Of a stretch of DNA of 64,000 bases, positions 6,551 through 64,000 are shown one piece after another (the stretch's first letter is position 1; each line of letters starts with the position of its first letter). The stretch covers positions 69,998,001-70,062,000 of the forward strand of contig OX638155.1 in the NCBI GenBank assembly GCA_951804945.1. The letters are read 5' to 3'. A program made the position numbers and the translations under genes. The notes beneath the pieces are model-generated. The model saw only the letters and a program-made list of their open reading frames with translations. It was not told the origin of the DNA and searched no databases. Source of the DNA: Podarcis cretensis. Its lineage: Eukaryota.

Positions 6551-6890
6551 GGGCGCTGTGGGTTAAACCACAGAGCCTAGGACTTGCCGATCAGAAAGTT
6601 GGCAGTTCGAATCCCCACAACGGGGTGAGCTCCCGTTGCTCAGTCCCTGCTCCTGCCCACCTAGCAGTTCGAAAGCACGTCAAAGTGCAAGTAGATAAAT
6701 AGGTACTGCTCCAGTGGGAAGGTAAACGGTGTTTCCATGCACTGCTCTGGTTCGCCAGAAGCGGCTTAGTCATGCTGGCCACATGACCCGGAAGCTGTAC
6801 GCCGGCTCCCTCGGCCAATAAAGCGAGATGAGCGCCGCAACCCCAGAGTCAGCCACAACTGGACCTAATGGTCAGGGGTCCCTTTACCTT
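6551..6890 (+). mobile_element. Sauria SINE (Squam1), slightly 5' truncated
   Basis: ggcgctgtgggttaaacc head, gttcgaatccc B box, gtgcaagtagataaatagg core, cctttacctt tail. Confidence 0.92.
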
Positions 6891-29817: not shown

Positions 29818-30183
29818 GGGACGTGGGTGGCGCTGTGGGTAAAACCTCAGTGCCTAGGGCTTGCCGATCGCATGGTCGGCGGTTTGAATCCCCGCGGTGG
29901 GGTGAGCTCCCGTCCTTTCGGTCCCAGCTCCTGCCCACCTAGCAGTTCAAAAGCACCCCTAAGTGCAAGTAGATAAATAGGTACCGCTTTATAGCGGGAA
30001 GGTAAACGGTGTTTCCGTGTGCTGTGCTGGTGCTGGCTCGCCAGAGCAGCTTCGTCACGCTGGCCACATGACCCGGAAGTGTCTCCAGACAGCGCTGGCC
30101 CCCGGCCTCTAGAGTGAGATGGGCGCACAACCCTAGAGTCGGACACGACTGGCCCGTACGGGCAGGGGTACCTTTGCCTTTTT
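29818..30183 (+). mobile_element. Sauria SINE, full length
   Basis: gggacgtgggtggcgctgtggg head to cctttgccttt tail; flanking repeat taatgcactca at 29802 and 30184. Confidence 0.93.
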
Positions 30184-35097: not shown

Positions 35098-35459
35098 AAA
35101 TATAATTAATTACTTAAAAGGCAGCTGATCAGTTAAAACATCTTAAATTGGCTGACACACTATCTTTTGAATTCCTAAATGGTCTGAAAAACAAATTAGT
35201 TTGAATGTAGGAAACATGTATTCCTCCTGCCACATCTTTCACTAGCATGTCATTAAATATGAGTCACCATTTCTCTGGAACAGACACCTGCTGAGTTTTC
35301 ATGAGTGATTCCTATTTTAAAAGTTAACTTGGCAAGTTTCTTTTTTTATAGAATTCTCTCTCTCTTGACCTCATGTTTATATAGCAATTGTTTTATGTTG
35401 TGAAATGGAAATACTTAGGATATGACTATTTTAAGTTAATATGCTATTTTTCTTTCCAG

Positions 35460-36162
35460 GTTTCCAAACAGGAACAGAAAAAAATGGATACATCTGATGG
35501 AGGCATGACTGAAACATCTTCACGTTACAGTGGAGCCCAAGACAGTGGCATTGGCAGTGACAGTGTTAAAATCAGAATAGTCCAAATAGAACAACACAGT
35601 GGTACCAGCCATCACCGCATTGCCCGTCCTTCTCGGCAGTCTTCTATTGTGAAGAACCTGAACTTCATTCCCTTTGATATTTTTATTACAGCAAGCCGAA
35701 TATCCTTCATGACTTACTCATGTGCCACTTTACCTAAATCAAAATCGATGGAAGATCAGAAAGATGGAGAGAAAGCAGCCAAAACTTCATTAAACCTTCC
35801 TGAAGCAAACTTGAGAGCTGAGCACGATTTCAAAAAGCCCAGTGGAGCAGGCATTTCATCTGTAACAGCAGATGACCTATTGAATGCTAACAGTTCACTG
35901 CCTTCTGGGAAAAAAGCAGGTCTTCTGTCTCTTGAAAGTCTTCATGCTTCTACAAGATCATCCGCTAGGCAAGCCTTGGGCATAACTATTGTTCGACAGC
36001 CTGGTCGCAGGGGAACTAGCGACTTGCAGTTAGAACCATTTTTGCACCTTGTCGTATCCCAACCTTCTTTGATCTTAAGCTGTCATCATAGAAAGCAGAG
36101 AGTGGAAATATCTGTGTTTGATGCTGTCCTTAAAGGTGTAGCTTCAGACTACAAGTGCACAG
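35460..36162 (+). CDS. VPS13B: VPS13B large coding exon (703 bp; VSKQEQKK...SGAQDSGIGSDSVKIRIVQIEQHSG...GVASDYKCT)
   Basis: tctttccag| acceptor, |gtaag donor; stop-free frame within ORF 35388-36176 with strong similarity to VPS13B. Confidence 0.97.
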
Positions 36163-36378
36163 GTAAGACCATTTAATGTCTGGCAGAATAATAATTCTTT
36201 TGTTCAGAGATTACTTGATGTACTATGGACAGCTTTCCTTCATGACCACATAATCTGGCCTCTGCTCAAGTTCAGAAACATTAAAAAAAAATCTTAAGAA
36301 AACAGTACTGTATAGCTAAACGTTTCAGTCTGAAGTGTTTCCCCGTTTTCTCGCACAAACCAGTACATGAATGTCATT

Positions 36379-36820: not shown

Positions 36821-38350
36821 ATGTCATTATTAACCTTTAAAACATCTAAATTGCTCCACGTAAAATGGAGTGCTTGCTGTGGAGCAGTACTGTTGTTCCT
36901 ATGCCATCTTTCTTTTAAGCAGTACTGCCTTAAGAGTACTGCCTTTGTAAGTACTGCTTTAAAAACCTTTGGGCCCATGAAAAGCCTTCTAGTCGGCTTA
37001 TCAGATCCAAGTATTAAAGGGAATCTGGATCTGCTGGTTTTTCTCTGGGGGCTCTACTTGAGCAATGCACATTTGGCTGGGGTTCCCCAATGATTTTTAA
37101 AAAGATATAATTACATATCAGTGTCGTTTTGAAGCGTCTGTTCCATGCTGCTGTCTCAACCCCATTTTCACTCCTGAAAATGTCATGTCAGCTGCTTGTC
37201 CACTTGGTAGCATCAGGGTTTTGATTTGAAAGGGTGATATGAATACTGCACAGATATTTGTGGGGAAGTGGCCACAACTAAGAGGACCTTTGCACAGAAG
37301 GGAAGGACCGTGCAGGAACTATCAACCACCCTGCTGCCTGGGACCCTTAGAAGGAGCTGCTACCTAAGGATTTTCTCCTGCTCTCTGAGATGGGGCAGGG
37401 GTGGTGGTGGTGGGGAGATCCCTTACTTTTTTGGCAGAAACCTGAGTGTGTTTGAATGTTACTGGTTTTCAAAATGTATTAGAATTTTGTATTTGTGTGG
37501 CATCCTTTCTGAGCCACTTTGGGGGCCTTTTTAGGTGGCACTTAAATAAGCAAGAACAAAAGATCCCAGGTTCCATCCCCAACCTAAAACACTGGAGAGT
37601 CAGCCAGCATAGACAATACTAGGCTAGATGGACTAGCAGCTTCCTAGCTTATTGTGGCTGATTATGTACAGAAGTAAGGACTACCATATTGGTATATATG
37701 TGCATCATTTGCAGAAAAGGATGAAAAGGAAATGACGTGAAACAGAATGATTTTCTACTTTAGTCCATTGCCAGTAACAAGCATTAAATAGGAAATAAAA
37801 TACCAATCTTCTCACTGACAAAACTGACAAATGGAAGAATTTTGATCCGAGATACTGTTTCTCTATCACTCCAAAATATGGATATTCATATTTGAAATCA
37901 TTGGCCTAGATTTACTTTAACTTCTTCAGCATGTGATGGCTTTAAGATTAACAGCAGCAATCCTTCTCCTCTTGCCAAACTTTGGGCAATCCATTTCATT
38001 TTCAGAAAAGAAATACATTGTTAGATTTAGATGTAATACACCACATTTTTATTCTCCAAATTTCTGCCTAAAGATATTAACAAGTTTGTTAAATGTTTTG
38101 AGCAAAAAGGAGAGTAAAATCATAGTGAGAATAAATGCCATCTGTACTAAAGCTGTCTGTAGAATAAAATACTGAAGAAACTGAACTGATAACTTGGCTG
38201 GGATCCAAAGAGCTACTTTAGATGTACCCAGCAAGTGCAAAGTTTTCACCTTGCCTCTAGTTTAGATTTTGAACATATGGGCAGGGCCTGTGTGCTGTAT
38301 TAGTGTATAGCACCAAGTATCTTTTTAATAAGGAATAAATGGTGATGACA

Positions 38351-38726
38351 GGGGACGCAGGTGGCGCTGTGGGTTAAAGCCTCAGCGCCAAGGACTTGCC
38401 GATCAAAAGGTCGGCGGTTCGAATCCCTGCGGCGGGGTGCGCTCCCGCTGCTCGGTCCCAGCGCCTGCCAACCTAGCAGTTCGAAAGCACCTCCAGGTGC
38501 AAGTAGATAAATAGGGACCGCTTACCAGCGGGAAGGTAAACGGCGTTTCCGTGTGCGGCTCTGGCTCGCCAGAGCAGCGATGTCACGCTGGCCACGTGAC
38601 CCGGAAGTGTCTCCGGACAGCGCTGGCCCTTGGCCTCTTAAGTGAGATGGGCGCACAACCCCAGAGTCTGTCAAGACTGGCCCGTACGGGCAGGGGTACC
38701 TTTACCTTTACCTTTACCTTTACCTT
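38351..38726 (+). mobile_element. Sauria SINE, full length, young
   Basis: (accttt)n tail; 15-bp TSD taaatggtgatgaca; CpGs retained. Confidence 0.96.
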
Positions 38727-40635: not shown

Positions 40636-41307
40636 TTACATCTGCTGTATTCTATAGGGTCGTGGGGGGGGTTGTGTGTGGGTTTTTTTTTTACAAAAAT
40701 GCAATTTTTTTATTGATCCAGGGCAAAGCGCCACTGTCAGAGCTGCCCCTAGGTTCTTTTCCCATCCCAGCGCGTTGACCAATGCAAAAAAGCGGGAGTG
40801 ATATTGCCGTACAGTGGCTTTGCCTTGTTTCAGTCCATGGATCTCCCTTCTGGCCACATCCACATCCACAGCCGATAGAAAACAAGCATCCATCACTTTA
40901 ATAAAGGCATCCGAATTTTGGAGGGCTGGGTCATTATCGCGCCACAGATTGCGCAGCCATGCCTTTGCTTCCCCATGGAGATGAGTTAGTATGAAGCCCA
41001 CTTTCTCCTGCTCATCTCTAAAGTCCTTTTGCAGCAACTTGAGCGCAAAAACCAGGTCTGCTCTGAAACTAGGATACTGCTGCAGGCTCCCGTCGAAATG
41101 GGACACGAGGCTGCCCCCCCTCTTACCGAGACCAATTCCCTCCGGTCTGGCACCCGGCAGCCCCTGTTTGATCAGCATTTCCAACCTGGTCTGCAGATCC
41201 TGGCAGGCGGCGGCTGCTTCATCCTCCCTCTTTCTGGATGCTGCTATTTCCATGTTGAGCCTTGTGACTGCTTCTTGCAAGGCTGCCATTCTTTCATCCG
41301 CACTCAT
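40636..41307 (-). CDS. Retrotransposon Gag (coiled coil + capsid), truncated after ~aa 185 and reading into LTR/flank sequence
   Basis: ATG at 41307; motifs FDG, KVGFILTHLHGEAKAW and MHR-like LKQGKATVRQYHSRF, as in the Retrotrans_gag/PEG10-RTL1 family. Confidence 0.85.
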   Translation of the reverse strand: MSADERMAALQEAVTRLNMEIAASRKREDEAAAACQDLQTRLEMLIKQGLPGARPEGIGLGKRGGSLVSHFDGSLQQYPSFRADLVFALKLLQKDFRDEQEKVGFILTHLHGEAKAWLRNLWRDNDPALQNSDAFIKVMDACFLSAVDVDVARREIHGLKQGKATVRQYHSRFFALVNALGWEKNLGAALTVALCPGSIKKLHFCKKKTHTQPPPRPYRIQQM

Positions 41308-42225
41308 CCTTCCCGATCTTCGTGAGCTCGCAAAGCACCAAGCTTCGCCCTTCGCCGCTTCAACTCACGCTGCGAAGGTTTAGGAGACGGGACTTACTGT
41401 CAGAGCTGCCCCTAGGTCCCAGCTCACAGAGGACCAACGCCCGATCGTCGTTATGTACAAAAGTCTTTATTGAAGTTCAACTTCCATTCCAAAGCCGCAG
41501 CGCGCAGCCCTACGTCTTAAACCCTAGACCGGCGAAGTCCCGTCTGAATCTCCTCCCCTCTGACACCAGTTTAAGATCCTAGCCCTGCTCCACCTTTTCC
41601 ATTGTTCTCTCCTCCTCTGGGTCCTCCTGCCCGCCGGGGCTTTCCCCTTTCTGGACTCTTCCGACGCTGAGTCGGCTGACTCCTCCCCCTGTCTCCGGCG
41701 GGCTTTAGGACCCGGTTCCCAATCCTCATTCTCTGCTGTCCCGCGCTCCTGTACATTTGAACTTGCCTCTCGCGCCAACCCAGTGACCTTCCTCCTGACC
41801 GTCACACTGCTTCTGTCACTGCTTCCCTCTTCCGGGATACTGCCCGGATCTGACCTCCCCTCCGTTGTCTGGCTCTCCGACGGAGGCGTGGCCAGCCCTG
41901 ACTTATCTTCACTCCCTGGTGTGGAATCCTCTGCCCTCGATACCTGGGACTCTTCCCCCCCCCACTATGCTCTGGTGGGGAAGCTGGTCCTGATTTCCAA
42001 CTGCTACTCTGGGAGTCCCTGCTGGCCCCTTGCTCCTGGAGTGTCCCCCTTGGGAATCCCCTTGCCCTGGCCACTGGCGCCCCCTTCTGTGAATCTTCCG
42101 ATTCGCTGGAGAGGCTCATGGAATCTCTCGGGCCACTGTCATCTTCTCCTACGCTGCCCTCAGATTCTTCCCCTTCGCTCTCCATCTCCCCTCTTCCCTA
42201 TGCTTCTGCTCCTGAACCCCTGACA
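40735..42225 (-). mobile_element. Internally deleted Ty3/gypsy (sushi/Tf1-like) LTR retrotransposon: full 5' LTR, PBS, gag, last 20 bp of the 3' LTR
   Basis: LTR 41398-42225 bounded by tgtcag...ctgaca; 40735-40754 is identical to 41398-41417; gag ORF lies between them. Confidence 0.9.
41398..42225 (-). repeat. 5' LTR (828 bp)
   Basis: TG...CA with 6-bp inverted termini; minus-strand AATAAA at 41466-41471; TATA-like CTTAAA at 41570-41575. Confidence 0.88.
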
Positions 42226-60068: not shown

Positions 60069-60341
60069 ATCAGAAGGTTGGCGGTTCGAATCCCCGTGAC
60101 AGGGTGAGCTCCTATTGCTCGGTCCCTGCTCCTGCCAACCTAGCAGTTCCCGCTCCGGCGGGAAGGTAAACAGCGTTTCCGTGCGCTGCTCTGGTTTGCC
60201 AGAAGCGGCTTAGTCATGCTGGCTACATGACCCGGAAGCTGTATGCCTGCTCCCTCGGCCAATAAAGCGAGATGAGTGCCGCAACCCTAGAGTTGGCCAT
60301 GACTGGACCTAATGGTCAGGGGTCCCTTTACCTTTACCTTA
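60069..60341 (+). mobile_element. Sauria SINE, 5' truncated with an internal deletion
   Basis: Same subfamily as the 6551 copy (gactggacctaatggtcaggggtccc); lacks the gtgcaagtagataaatagg segment. Confidence 0.9.
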
Positions 60342-60530: not shown

Positions 60531-62819
60531 ATTGGCTGTGGAATGGGAATGAAGCAGGCTTACTTTTCGACTTGCTTGTGGACCAAAAAGAAGCAGGATG
60601 TAGCTTGAAGGCGTTATAGATTTTGTGGAAGAGTTGCAAGAGAACGAAATGGAAAGGCGAAGGGTGCTCTAATATTTCCTCCTCCTTACAGTATAACATA
60701 CAAATATAATTATGTATGTCTGTGTGTATGTATGTATGTATACTCAAATACCCTGGGGAAAATACAAAATACATGAACCACTGGAATTTTGCTGTTTGCG
60801 AATAGAAGACCCTTGCCCTTGCTTATTTGCTCCTCTCAACTATCACTGTGCAACATGTTTTAGTATCATTTTCAACAAAGATAAATAAGTCAAATGGTGG
60901 AGGGCAGCCTTTGGTTTTATAGGATTTTAATAATTCAGTCTTGATGTAATTGTCATGCAAATCAGCTTCTGGATAGTATCCATCCACAGACTTGCGGATT
61001 TGTCAAGTGGTCCTAAATCATTTCCAGCTGTATAAAGAATACCTGGATATTCTTTGCTAACATATGTCATCCCAGACTAATCTTTATAATGACATACAGA
61101 AGCCTCGTTGTAAAGAAGCCCGATTGTCTCTTGCTCCATCAGCACGGTGGTACATCCGAGTGCTATTATAGATCAAAGCAGAGCCTGACAATGTAAGGCT
61201 GGCAGCATTTTGTAAACATCATCCAAACCAAGTGCTTCATTTTTATTAGTCTCCTGAAGGGCTATTTTTAAAAGTCGTGAAACTGCTTGCTCCTCGTGCT
61301 AAATTATTGCGCTCCCTGAAAAGTATGCGAGGGCACAGCGAGCAGCGATGCGAGCCGAGCGTGTTAACTTCTGGATATCACAACAGTCGTTTGCGAAGAT
61401 ACATTGATTCAGTGAGCTGCCATATCAGGTTGAGTTGAAATTGTTGCCATGATTTAATCTGTTTAAAGGCAAGAACAAATTCTACGGTCGGTTTTTGAGG
61501 GAGGCCAGAGGAAGCTGTATAAAGTCCTTTGGGCGAGTGGGAAGGGGAATTTCACTTCACTTCATCTTTTCAAGCGGAGCTATTCAGTCTTAGGAAAGTA
61601 ACCTTATAAGTTCAGCTCATACTTTGTAATTCAACCAGGTGCTTAGAAATCCTAAAATAAGACTCTGGGCACACTGATATATGTTCCATTGGTATTCTGC
61701 GCTTCTTTCCTTTAGGATGCAAATTCCGTTTGTCCACACATGGCAGCCTATTGAGATTTCTCTGAATGTGATGCTCCACTGAAAGAAGCTTTACTAAAGC
61801 CCATGCCTTATTTCACTCACCATTATTCTTGCTGTATGTTCATAGCTGTCTGTCTTCAGCTGTTTTTAAAGTACTTACTCCATTAACCCTCTCATGATTG
61901 CACTTTGTGTGACTTCTGACTGAATATTCCCCTTCATTAGGTGCGCTGTGATTTATATAGCAAGATTTATTTCACCTCAAAGACGGAACAGAACAGCTGA
62001 AGAAGAAAGTTATAATGTCCTTGAGGAAAATTCTGGCTCTTAGTAAGATTAAAATAAAAGAATACATTTCAAAATTGTCCTGCATCCCAGTGCAGTTCTT
62101 TTGCACAATGTAAATCATCATCGCTTGAAATTCATAGAGCCTTTTTCTTTTATAGATCATTGGGGCTTGAATGAAATTCATACCACTTGGAATGTCTCTT
62201 TATCACTATCCCACCTAATTGAAAATACAGTATATTCCAGCATTGATGCTGTTGTAGGCTTCTAGATATGCCCTTTGGTGAAAAGTATACAAGGCTTTTC
62301 TTGGATCAGGCTTTGTTGTATAATATTTTTACAGGGCCAAGCAAGCCAAGTGACAATTTCAGCTATGCCAAGGAAGCAGAATTTGCCCCGGGATCCCTTT
62401 CAGCATTAGAGGACAGTTTGGGAACATCATAAGGGATTGTGGGCACACCCATCTGGTGACACCTGTTGATGTTTAGGGCAGTAGAAAAGTTTTGGGGTGG
62501 TTCTGTGGCTCAACAGTGATTTAAATAATAGGTAATAGGCCTCAGCTTTTATGGCCCACTCCCATTTATGTTTAGTGATGGTAGGACTTGGTTAACCAGG
62601 ATCCCTGGATAGCCATAGCTGCATTTATTACAAGCAGTGAAACTAACTTTGGAGATGTTAGCTCAGTGAAAGGGTGCTTGGGTTGCATTACGTAATTCTG
62701 TATTGCAAAAAATGCCTGCTGGTCCTCGGAAATAAACGTTTCAGAAATAGATGTGGACCAAAAGGGGCTGAAGAGGAGGGTCCTTGTCTCTGGAACATTG
62801 CATTGCTCTTATCTTAGTA

Positions 62820-63174
62820 AAGGTAAAGGTAAAGGTACCCCTGCCCGTACAGGCCAGTCTTGACAGACTCTGGGGTTGTGCGCCCATCTCACTTAAGAGG
62901 CCAGGGGCCAGCGCTGTCCGGAGACACTTCCGGGTCACGTGGCCAGCGTGACATCGCTGCTCTGGCGAGCCAGAGCCGCACACGGAAACGCCGTTTACCT
63001 TCCCGCTGGTAAGCGGTCCCTATTTGCACCTGGAGGTGCTTTTGAACTGCTAGGTTGGCAGGCGCTGGGACCGAGCAGCGGGAGCGCACCCCGCCGCAGG
63101 GATTCGAACCGCCGACCTTTCGATCGGCAAGTCCTGGGCGCTGAGGCTTTAACCCACAGCGCCACCTGCGTCCC
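62820..63174 (-). mobile_element. Sauria SINE, full length, young
   Basis: Near-identical reverse complement of 38351-38726 with an 8-nt deletion; TSD cttatcttagta. Confidence 0.96.
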
Positions 63175-64000
63175 TTATCTTAGTAGCTTTCTGCTATTAG
63201 CTAAAGACACATGCAGGTTGCATATTGATATTAAAGGGTTGCATGTTCATGGGCAACAGCCGAACGACCTGGTAACAATTTTGTTGCAATGAGTACTGCA
63301 CATAGGGAAGGAAATGGGGGTAATTTCCCTCTCTCATTTCTCTTTCTTCAGATACCTCATTAGAGTCCTAATGAGATCTTAAAAGGGGAAGTACTGAGGG
63401 AGGAAGCTTTATTAGAAGCAAGGAACAAAGGATATATGTATCCCTTTGTGACATGATTTTAAGAGGGCAATGGCATAGAAGAGCAGGGACGTGAGGGAGC
63501 ATACCTCCAGTACTTTTTTCATTGCAGGAGTGATTATGTCACTTGCAGGAGCACTAGTTGCCAGTGCTGAAAACTTGTGAGTTTCATTCATTTACCCGGC
63601 AAAAGCCTCTTCCGCACTATTTTAAAAGACCTAAAGGTTTATTGGTTCTTTACTTTTACAAAGTAGCATTTTGAGTCCCTCTTTGGTGGTGTAGTCATGG
63701 AAGTTGTCACCATGAGCTGCACTTCAAAATTTACCACTGGCCCAGTGTGCGGAGAAATCCATTCAGGTGGGAGTAAATAGGCAGCAATAGGTTGGCATAA
63801 TAGAATTCTGACCTCTTGCCTGCTTCCTTCCCTGAACATGCATAGTCAAGAGCCTGCTTCCAAATCTTCTTTATGACAGAGGACCTGAGTGAGTCAGGCA
63901 TGTACTGCGCCTGTGCACAGTTGTGTTTTAGCTGTGGGTAGAAGAAGGTAGCTTCCATTGCATTTCTGACTATTTTTATTTATATCACCCTCTTACACGC

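Follow-up and report, generated by a model that had tools for sequence, protein, structure and literature searches.

We report that a lizard LTR retrotransposon carries, just past its 5' LTR, a primer-binding site (PBS) that pairs with 11 bases of the LTR itself, and that the capped 5' end of the element's own RNA likely primes reverse transcription, in the manner of Tf1. From the sequence comparisons described below, we put the probability of this reading at about 0.87; covariation between the paired segments, the lack of a tRNA-type PBS and the recurrence of the same geometry in three families support it, as they do the original prediction of a self-primed element. Two features described below, the variable bases past the PBS and the extension of pol into U3, did not figure in that prediction. 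Self-priming is proven for Tf1 of fission yeast. To our knowledge, it has been demonstrated only in that organism and is assumed for the vertebrate relatives, the Tf1/sushi group to which the mammalian PEG10/RTL genes are linked.

The window copy and its primer site

The element lies on the minus strand of the 64,000-nt stretch of DNA that we analysed (the window). Its 5' LTR (41398-42225, 828 nt, TGTCA...TGACA) shares 99.0-99.3% identity with the five closest of the LTRs that we fetched. On the minus strand the terminal TGACA runs to 41398 and is followed by a 2-nt spacer, GT (41397-41396), and then by the PBS, AAGTCCCGTCT, at 41395-41385. Integrase 3' processing is known to trim a terminal dinucleotide, which the spacer likely represents. 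The PBS is an exact complement of AGACGGGACTT at 41545-41535, the predicted self-primer, which would form the first 11 nt of the RNA and the start of R. Both 11-mers are located where the original prediction had placed them. Its accompanying motifs were also present, with CTTAAA (41575-41570) beginning 30 nt upstream of 41545 and a polyadenylation-like AATAAA at 41471-41466, but the identification of the former as a TATA element was weak, because the motif doubles as codons (I-L-N-W) of the conserved Pol-tail frame described below and some subfamilies of a sister family have no TATA-like word there; its promoter role is putative.

We generated 20,000 dinucleotide shuffles and scored exact 11-nt complements, anywhere in the LTR, of a word starting 0-5 nt past the LTR; such a match arose in 120 (0.6%). 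The 11-bp helix was found in both the MFE and the centroid folds of a 191-nt region, the overall stability of which was not above that of shuffled sequences (z = 0.58).

Beyond the leader, only the 5' half of gag remains (41307-40757; Retrotrans_gag, Ty3_capsid and DUF4939 matches). It ends abruptly near 40757, where it joins the final 20 nt of an LTR (40754-40735), and the flanks of the element, ATTTC and GTGGC, show no target-site duplication. No empty-site version of these flanks was present among the fetched loci. The window copy is a dead, internally deleted member of a young lizard chromovirus family and not a whole element. Its assignment to a lizard fits, the closest Pol proteins being those of Podarcis, at 93% identity. 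Its right end reads TGACA and then GT (40735-40730, minus strand), resembling an unprocessed cDNA end; a right end with no duplication may reflect capture by a route other than integrase, or a later deletion.

Elsewhere in the window, an exon-like frame at 35385-36176 (plus strand), which had no PDB match, seems to resemble VPS13B, and the element may for this reason lie antisense in a VPS13B intron. There are also 5 related SINE-like copies (6552-6890, 29829-30181, 38347-38717, 60069-60340 and 62817-63179), 2 of them 96-99% alike, which are probably Sauria SINE.

Family A and two further families

The LTR-PBS junction of the window copy was found in 653 exact copies in the genome, and a reversed control in none; we refer to this group as family A. 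Among 20 regions fetched around the best matches, 12 contained a second full-length LTR approximately 5.7-5.9 kb downstream. Two-LTR copies are about 6.7 kb long and have mostly 5-bp duplications, a polypurine tract, and a gag that overlaps pol in the -1 frame. In their natural frames, the Pol proteins of other copies matched Pfam protease, RT, RNase H, integrase and SH3 domains, and the Ty3/gypsy order gag-PR-RT-RNase H-IN, of which the window copy keeps only part of gag, is present in them. The chromodomain PF00385 was detected at E = 0.0048, below the curated cut-off, and only in a scan restricted to the C-terminal part; it was not found on the whole pol frame at E 0.01, and it is carried by sister-family proteins. 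A DIRS/Ngaro anatomy was rejected on the direct LTRs, the 5-bp duplications and the rve integrase. LTR-pair identities were 95.3-99.8% in the window's group, with one mixed copy at 78.7%; in the youngest group, all 10 copies compared had identities of 98.6-100%.

Podarcis muralis supplies the closest Pol proteins (88-93% identity), followed by Anolis, fish, frog and fungi; UniRef already holds the family, unnamed, as the P. muralis 'Gypsy retrotransposon integrase-like protein 1' entries. Two further, distant families were identified in the lizard genome, family B through DUF4939 (51% identical to family A in RT-IN) and family C through SH3_Tf2-1 (64%). In a quick RT-IN tree of 27 rows (4 of our own and 23 of the 120 listed matches, none a named Tf1 or sushi element), rooted on Lolium, families A, B and C fell in a squamate clade (SH-aLRT 99) inside a fungal/vertebrate group (100), and the grass rows fell apart from the squamate clade. 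The full-length copies are of the Ty3/gypsy type, with a weak chromodomain, and in this tree they group with fungal and vertebrate chromoviruses.

Several side observations concern the distribution of family A. Its junctions crowd contig ends, as on contig C1, a contig of 141.6 Mb on which 28 of 65 junctions fall within the final 0.64 Mb and 7 within the initial 0.21 Mb; by eye, the A/T form described below, which is the youngest lineage, looked more spread along the arms. Tandem elements with a common LTR (polypurine tract - LTR - PBS) and a period of about 5.8 kb were seen at L122/L123 and L139/L140, and at L019, L028 and L148. Family A sequence is included in contig sets X1, X2, X3 and X7, in which contigs carry no indication of start, strand or level.

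Proposed mechanism

In the scheme that we infer for the observed complementarity, covariation, invariant C, hot spot and domain content, transcription would start at 41545, and RNA bases 1-11 would fold back onto the PBS. The RNA would be cut after base 11, and the 11-nt fragment would prime minus-strand DNA. Plus-strand strong-stop DNA would then copy the primer back into a PBS, with the cap read as C and one to a few untemplated bases added, and would anneal through only 11 bp and be extended across mismatches. Two consequences can be drawn from such a cycle. The PBS would be rewritten from the RNA 5' end each time, producing covariation, and the bases past the PBS would be scrambled each time, producing a variable junction.

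The junction 3' of the PBS

In the window copy, the PBS is followed at 41384-41381 by the invariant C and then by bases specific to each copy. We collected copies from the 3 families with patterns that covered the PBS and excluded the junction, and observed that the base after the PBS was C in 163 of 168 copies of family A (5 copies did not have it), 25 of 27 of family B and 74 of 75 of family C. The helix cannot extend through this position, and ends at the predicted +1, because the R site is preceded by C or T and extension would need G or A.

The bases that follow the C behaved differently from the rest of the sequence. Among the 74 youngest family A copies (76 were collected, of which a recombinant type and a row with an indel were set aside), PBS+2 and +3 were the only ones of 600 positions with at least 3 recurrent alleles, and their states recurred on every large haplotype. 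On a tree built without the junction, +3 required 19 changes and +2 required 8, as compared with 1-5 for each of 8 control polymorphisms. In young family C copies (36 of 38; 2 indel rows excluded), +2 alone behaved in this way, with all 4 bases represented, and in older groups insertions and deletions pile up at the same point. A further C came next in 8 of the 9 family A copies with C as the 11th PBS base, as a start at +2 plus the cap would give.

Reverse transcriptases can copy an RNA cap, and given self-priming, we consider it fairly probable, from the alignments, that the C and the variable bases after it are the footprint of a capped RNA end. Another account, which we regard as distinctly less likely but worth serious attention, grants self-priming and takes the junction for an ordinary error hot spot of plus-strand transfer, with the C held by selection on the leader instead of being written from the cap. 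Mutation hot spots 3' of the tRNA PBS are known in Ty1 and in retroviral vectors, so the hot spot alone is no proof of a capped primer, the more so as our comparison covered self-primed families only. In the accessible text of PMC3035444, moreover, strong template-independent synthesis is described for the Tf1 reverse transcriptase, and such enzymes can append bases without a template wherever a template ends and can elongate from termini that are short or mismatched. Set against this account is the observation that C comes first in 3 families with unrelated leaders, where its neighbours vary freely, as is the further C in the 8 copies just described. If the cap footprint is true, it would allow genuine self-priming to be told apart from chance complementarity by a simple test on sequence, in the many elements for which self-priming is a prediction, and would provide a genome-readable proof of self-priming and a map of start sites for elements without RNA data.

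Covariation of primer and PBS

We searched the genome with 4 patterns for family A, which gave 608 matches (copies with other mutations being uncounted), and compared base 5 of R with base 7 of the PBS. The combinations were G/C in 332, A/T in 259, A/C in 8 and G/T in 9, so that pairing was intact in 591 of 608. This change amounts to approximately one event, because most A/T copies belong to a single young lineage and each of the two changes is of the CpG type. The family B junction reads ACA-GT-PBS, again with a GT spacer but with a different 10-mer; R was located for 21 of 27 junctions, and pairing was perfect in 17 of the 21, with 9 copies of one form and 8 of a compensated one. In family C, the LTR measures 405 nt and the spacer is GC. 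Its 11-mer, a third sequence, exists in 2 fully paired forms (155 and 54 of 239 matches) that differ at 2 compensated sites, one of them non-CpG. One family C copy, L309, whose flanks are otherwise of an older type, has the young form at both R and PBS, as is expected if the PBS follows R. The complementarity of the 11-mers is thus kept across the family, as had been predicted, including through compensatory changes, and the covariation represents about 4 independent events, 3 of them of the CpG type on both sides.

A side observation in family B is a pyrimidine-rich repeat of approximately 42 nt, variable in number, between the self-primer and the LTR end (175-260 nt; L081-L110, L168-L177); primer pairing is retained despite the variable repeat number.

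The same data bear on readings in which the RNA 5' end does not prime. The pairing could serve leader structure or translation, or mark a splice donor, with a trans-acting RNA such as a tRNA half as the primer. The splice-donor version draws on the window itself, where spacer and PBS start (41397-41392, minus strand) spell GTAAGT, a perfect donor hexamer to which the LTR end leads; this hexamer is a feature of family A only, families B and C having no donor consensus, and there was no joint from the site among the splice joints listed for contigs. As for a tRNA, TGG followed the LTR in 0 of 168 copies, in keeping with the predicted non-tRNA PBS, and the best match was 6 nt in a comparison that covered 24 distinct retrieved tRNA genes, an incomplete set that leaves this version some room. 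Since the PBS is wholly different in the 3 families, and in each matches and changes with its own LTR, we consider all of these versions improbable. That the match arose by chance or by shared ancestry without function is the least probable reading by far, notwithstanding the 0.6% of shuffles and the CpG-type change of a single expanded lineage in family A, because the same geometry occurs with different letters in 3 families and the family C 11-mer is conserved against a mean column identity of 73% in the rest of R-U5.

Flanking duplexes

According to the accessible text of 10.1101/2022.12.06.519325, the Tf1 pretzel requires 2 further duplexes beside the PBS. Returning to self-priming by the RNA 5' end, we examined families A and C for such arms with alignments of 37 of 132 and 30 of 75 distinct sequences, respectively. 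In family A, 16 contiguous R bases (41511-41496 in the window), candidate arms in which pairing is kept, can pair with both sides of the PBS. The U5 partner of 41511-41504 (GCAGCTCT) lies at 41409-41402, with 99.0% of cells paired, and the leader partner of 41503-41496 (CGCAGCGT), a putative pseudoknot arm, at 41374-41367, with 87.2%. A mismatch interrupts the leader arm in 29 of the 37 sequences, and a second leader site competes with it in other subfamilies. Although a systematic scan placed these arms at the top, two-sided change is nearly absent from them; for the whole structure, the covariation score was reached by 12 of 500 shuffles and the count of pairs with two-sided changes by 173 of 500. 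In family C, an 11-bp pseudoknot arm between U5 and the leader includes 4 pairs with two-sided changes, and the inner arm is only 3 bp; the covariation score of the whole structure was reached by 0 of 500 shuffles, a figure that relatedness can inflate even where there is no structure. Family B showed no clear flanking arms.

The pol frame through U3

The 3' end of pol continues through U3 of the LTR and encodes a C-terminal Pol tail, acidic and Ser-rich and then Arg-rich (42224-41524 in the window, where the frame is broken near 41960). Among 93 LTRs collected, the frame was open in 60 of the 62 of two standard lengths, for which the chance expectation is 0.8-1.7%, and indels of 3 and 63 nt leave it in register. 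It continues the pol frame, which spans 1,563 codons between stops in 5 of 10 young copies. Since its stop lies 22 nt inside R, the self-primer also codes for protein. The pol frames of families B and C likewise run through U3, that of C being open in 56 of 60.

In 7 non-independent pairs, dN/dS was 0.32-0.40 for this frame versus 0.87-3.0 for the other sense frames. An antisense frame over U3 (41564-42223, plus strand) is long in 52 of 62 LTRs, with its Met late or absent; it shares third codon positions with the sense frame, so that selection cannot be assigned by dN/dS alone. Continuity with pol favors the view that purifying selection acts on the sense frame. A separate LTR-borne gene of the Nef/Sag kind was rejected, as the frame, where it is unbroken, continues that of pol.

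The tail had no Pfam match and no Atlas match, and only 5 close homologues were found, from Logan contigs and Podarcis lilfordi. The tails of families A and C end in a similar Arg-rich stretch followed by L-x-W. Those of family B and an Anolis family end in RRSARL or RRSARI, which occurs in 3 of 120 tails and 0 of 140,854 other residues; the carriers are the family B 3' LTR (L169-L177), P0031, P0032 and P0034, and the exact RRSAR[LI] motif does not occur in the family A tail. In the accessible text of PMC12487698 this sequence is the core of the HMGN nucleosome-binding motif, and we hypothesize from the resemblance that the U3-encoded integrase tail binds chromatin. Our literature search, which reached a minority of subscription papers, returned no prior description of a U3-spanning pol frame in vertebrate elements, or of the junction footprint. 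Taken together, each insertion may record the capped 5' end of its parent RNA, as PBS, cap-templated C and untemplated bases that ratchet into the leader, and U3 may also encode a chromatin-binding integrase tail, so that promoter, primer and targeting peptide would be one sequence; we judge the chances of this combined reading to be evenly balanced.

Comparison with known systems

Self-primed chromoviruses include Tf1/Tf2 of Schizosaccharomyces pombe, Tj1 and Tosmo1-3 (10.1101/2022.12.06.519325, PMC4600332, PMC5341516). As far as the accessible texts describe them, the lizard families resemble these in having a PBS just past the CA of the LTR that complements the predicted RNA 5' end, in their candidate flanking duplexes and in a chromodomain integrase. 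They differ in the weak CCHC knuckle of Gag and its -1 overlap with pol, in LTRs of 759-828 nt with a protein-coding U3, and in that priming in the lizard is deduced. For the vertebrate Tf1/sushi group, self-priming was predicted by Butler et al. 2001, as cited in the accessible parts of PMC6317226 and PMC4600332. The TGTCA..TGACA ends of the lizard LTRs fit the Sushi LTR motif as given in the accessible part of PMC3601003, the -1 gag-pol overlap is a second likeness, and the lizard family was placed by a tree built without a named V-clade sequence.

A precedent for an integrase tail encoded in the LTR, as in the lizard, is described for plant CRM group A in the accessible text of PMC3059260. 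In that group, which is tRNA-primed, a CR motif replaces the chromodomain, whereas in the lizard the PBS is self-complementary and the tail, which comes after the chromodomain, extends over the whole of U3 and has even the self-primer within its coding sequence. The tail parallels the CR motif and is a candidate explanation for the clustering of the family at chromosome ends. In summary, the mechanism is known from yeast and was already proposed for the vertebrate group; the lizard families, which are young and of high copy number in one vertebrate genome, add comparative evidence that the assumption of vertebrate self-priming holds.
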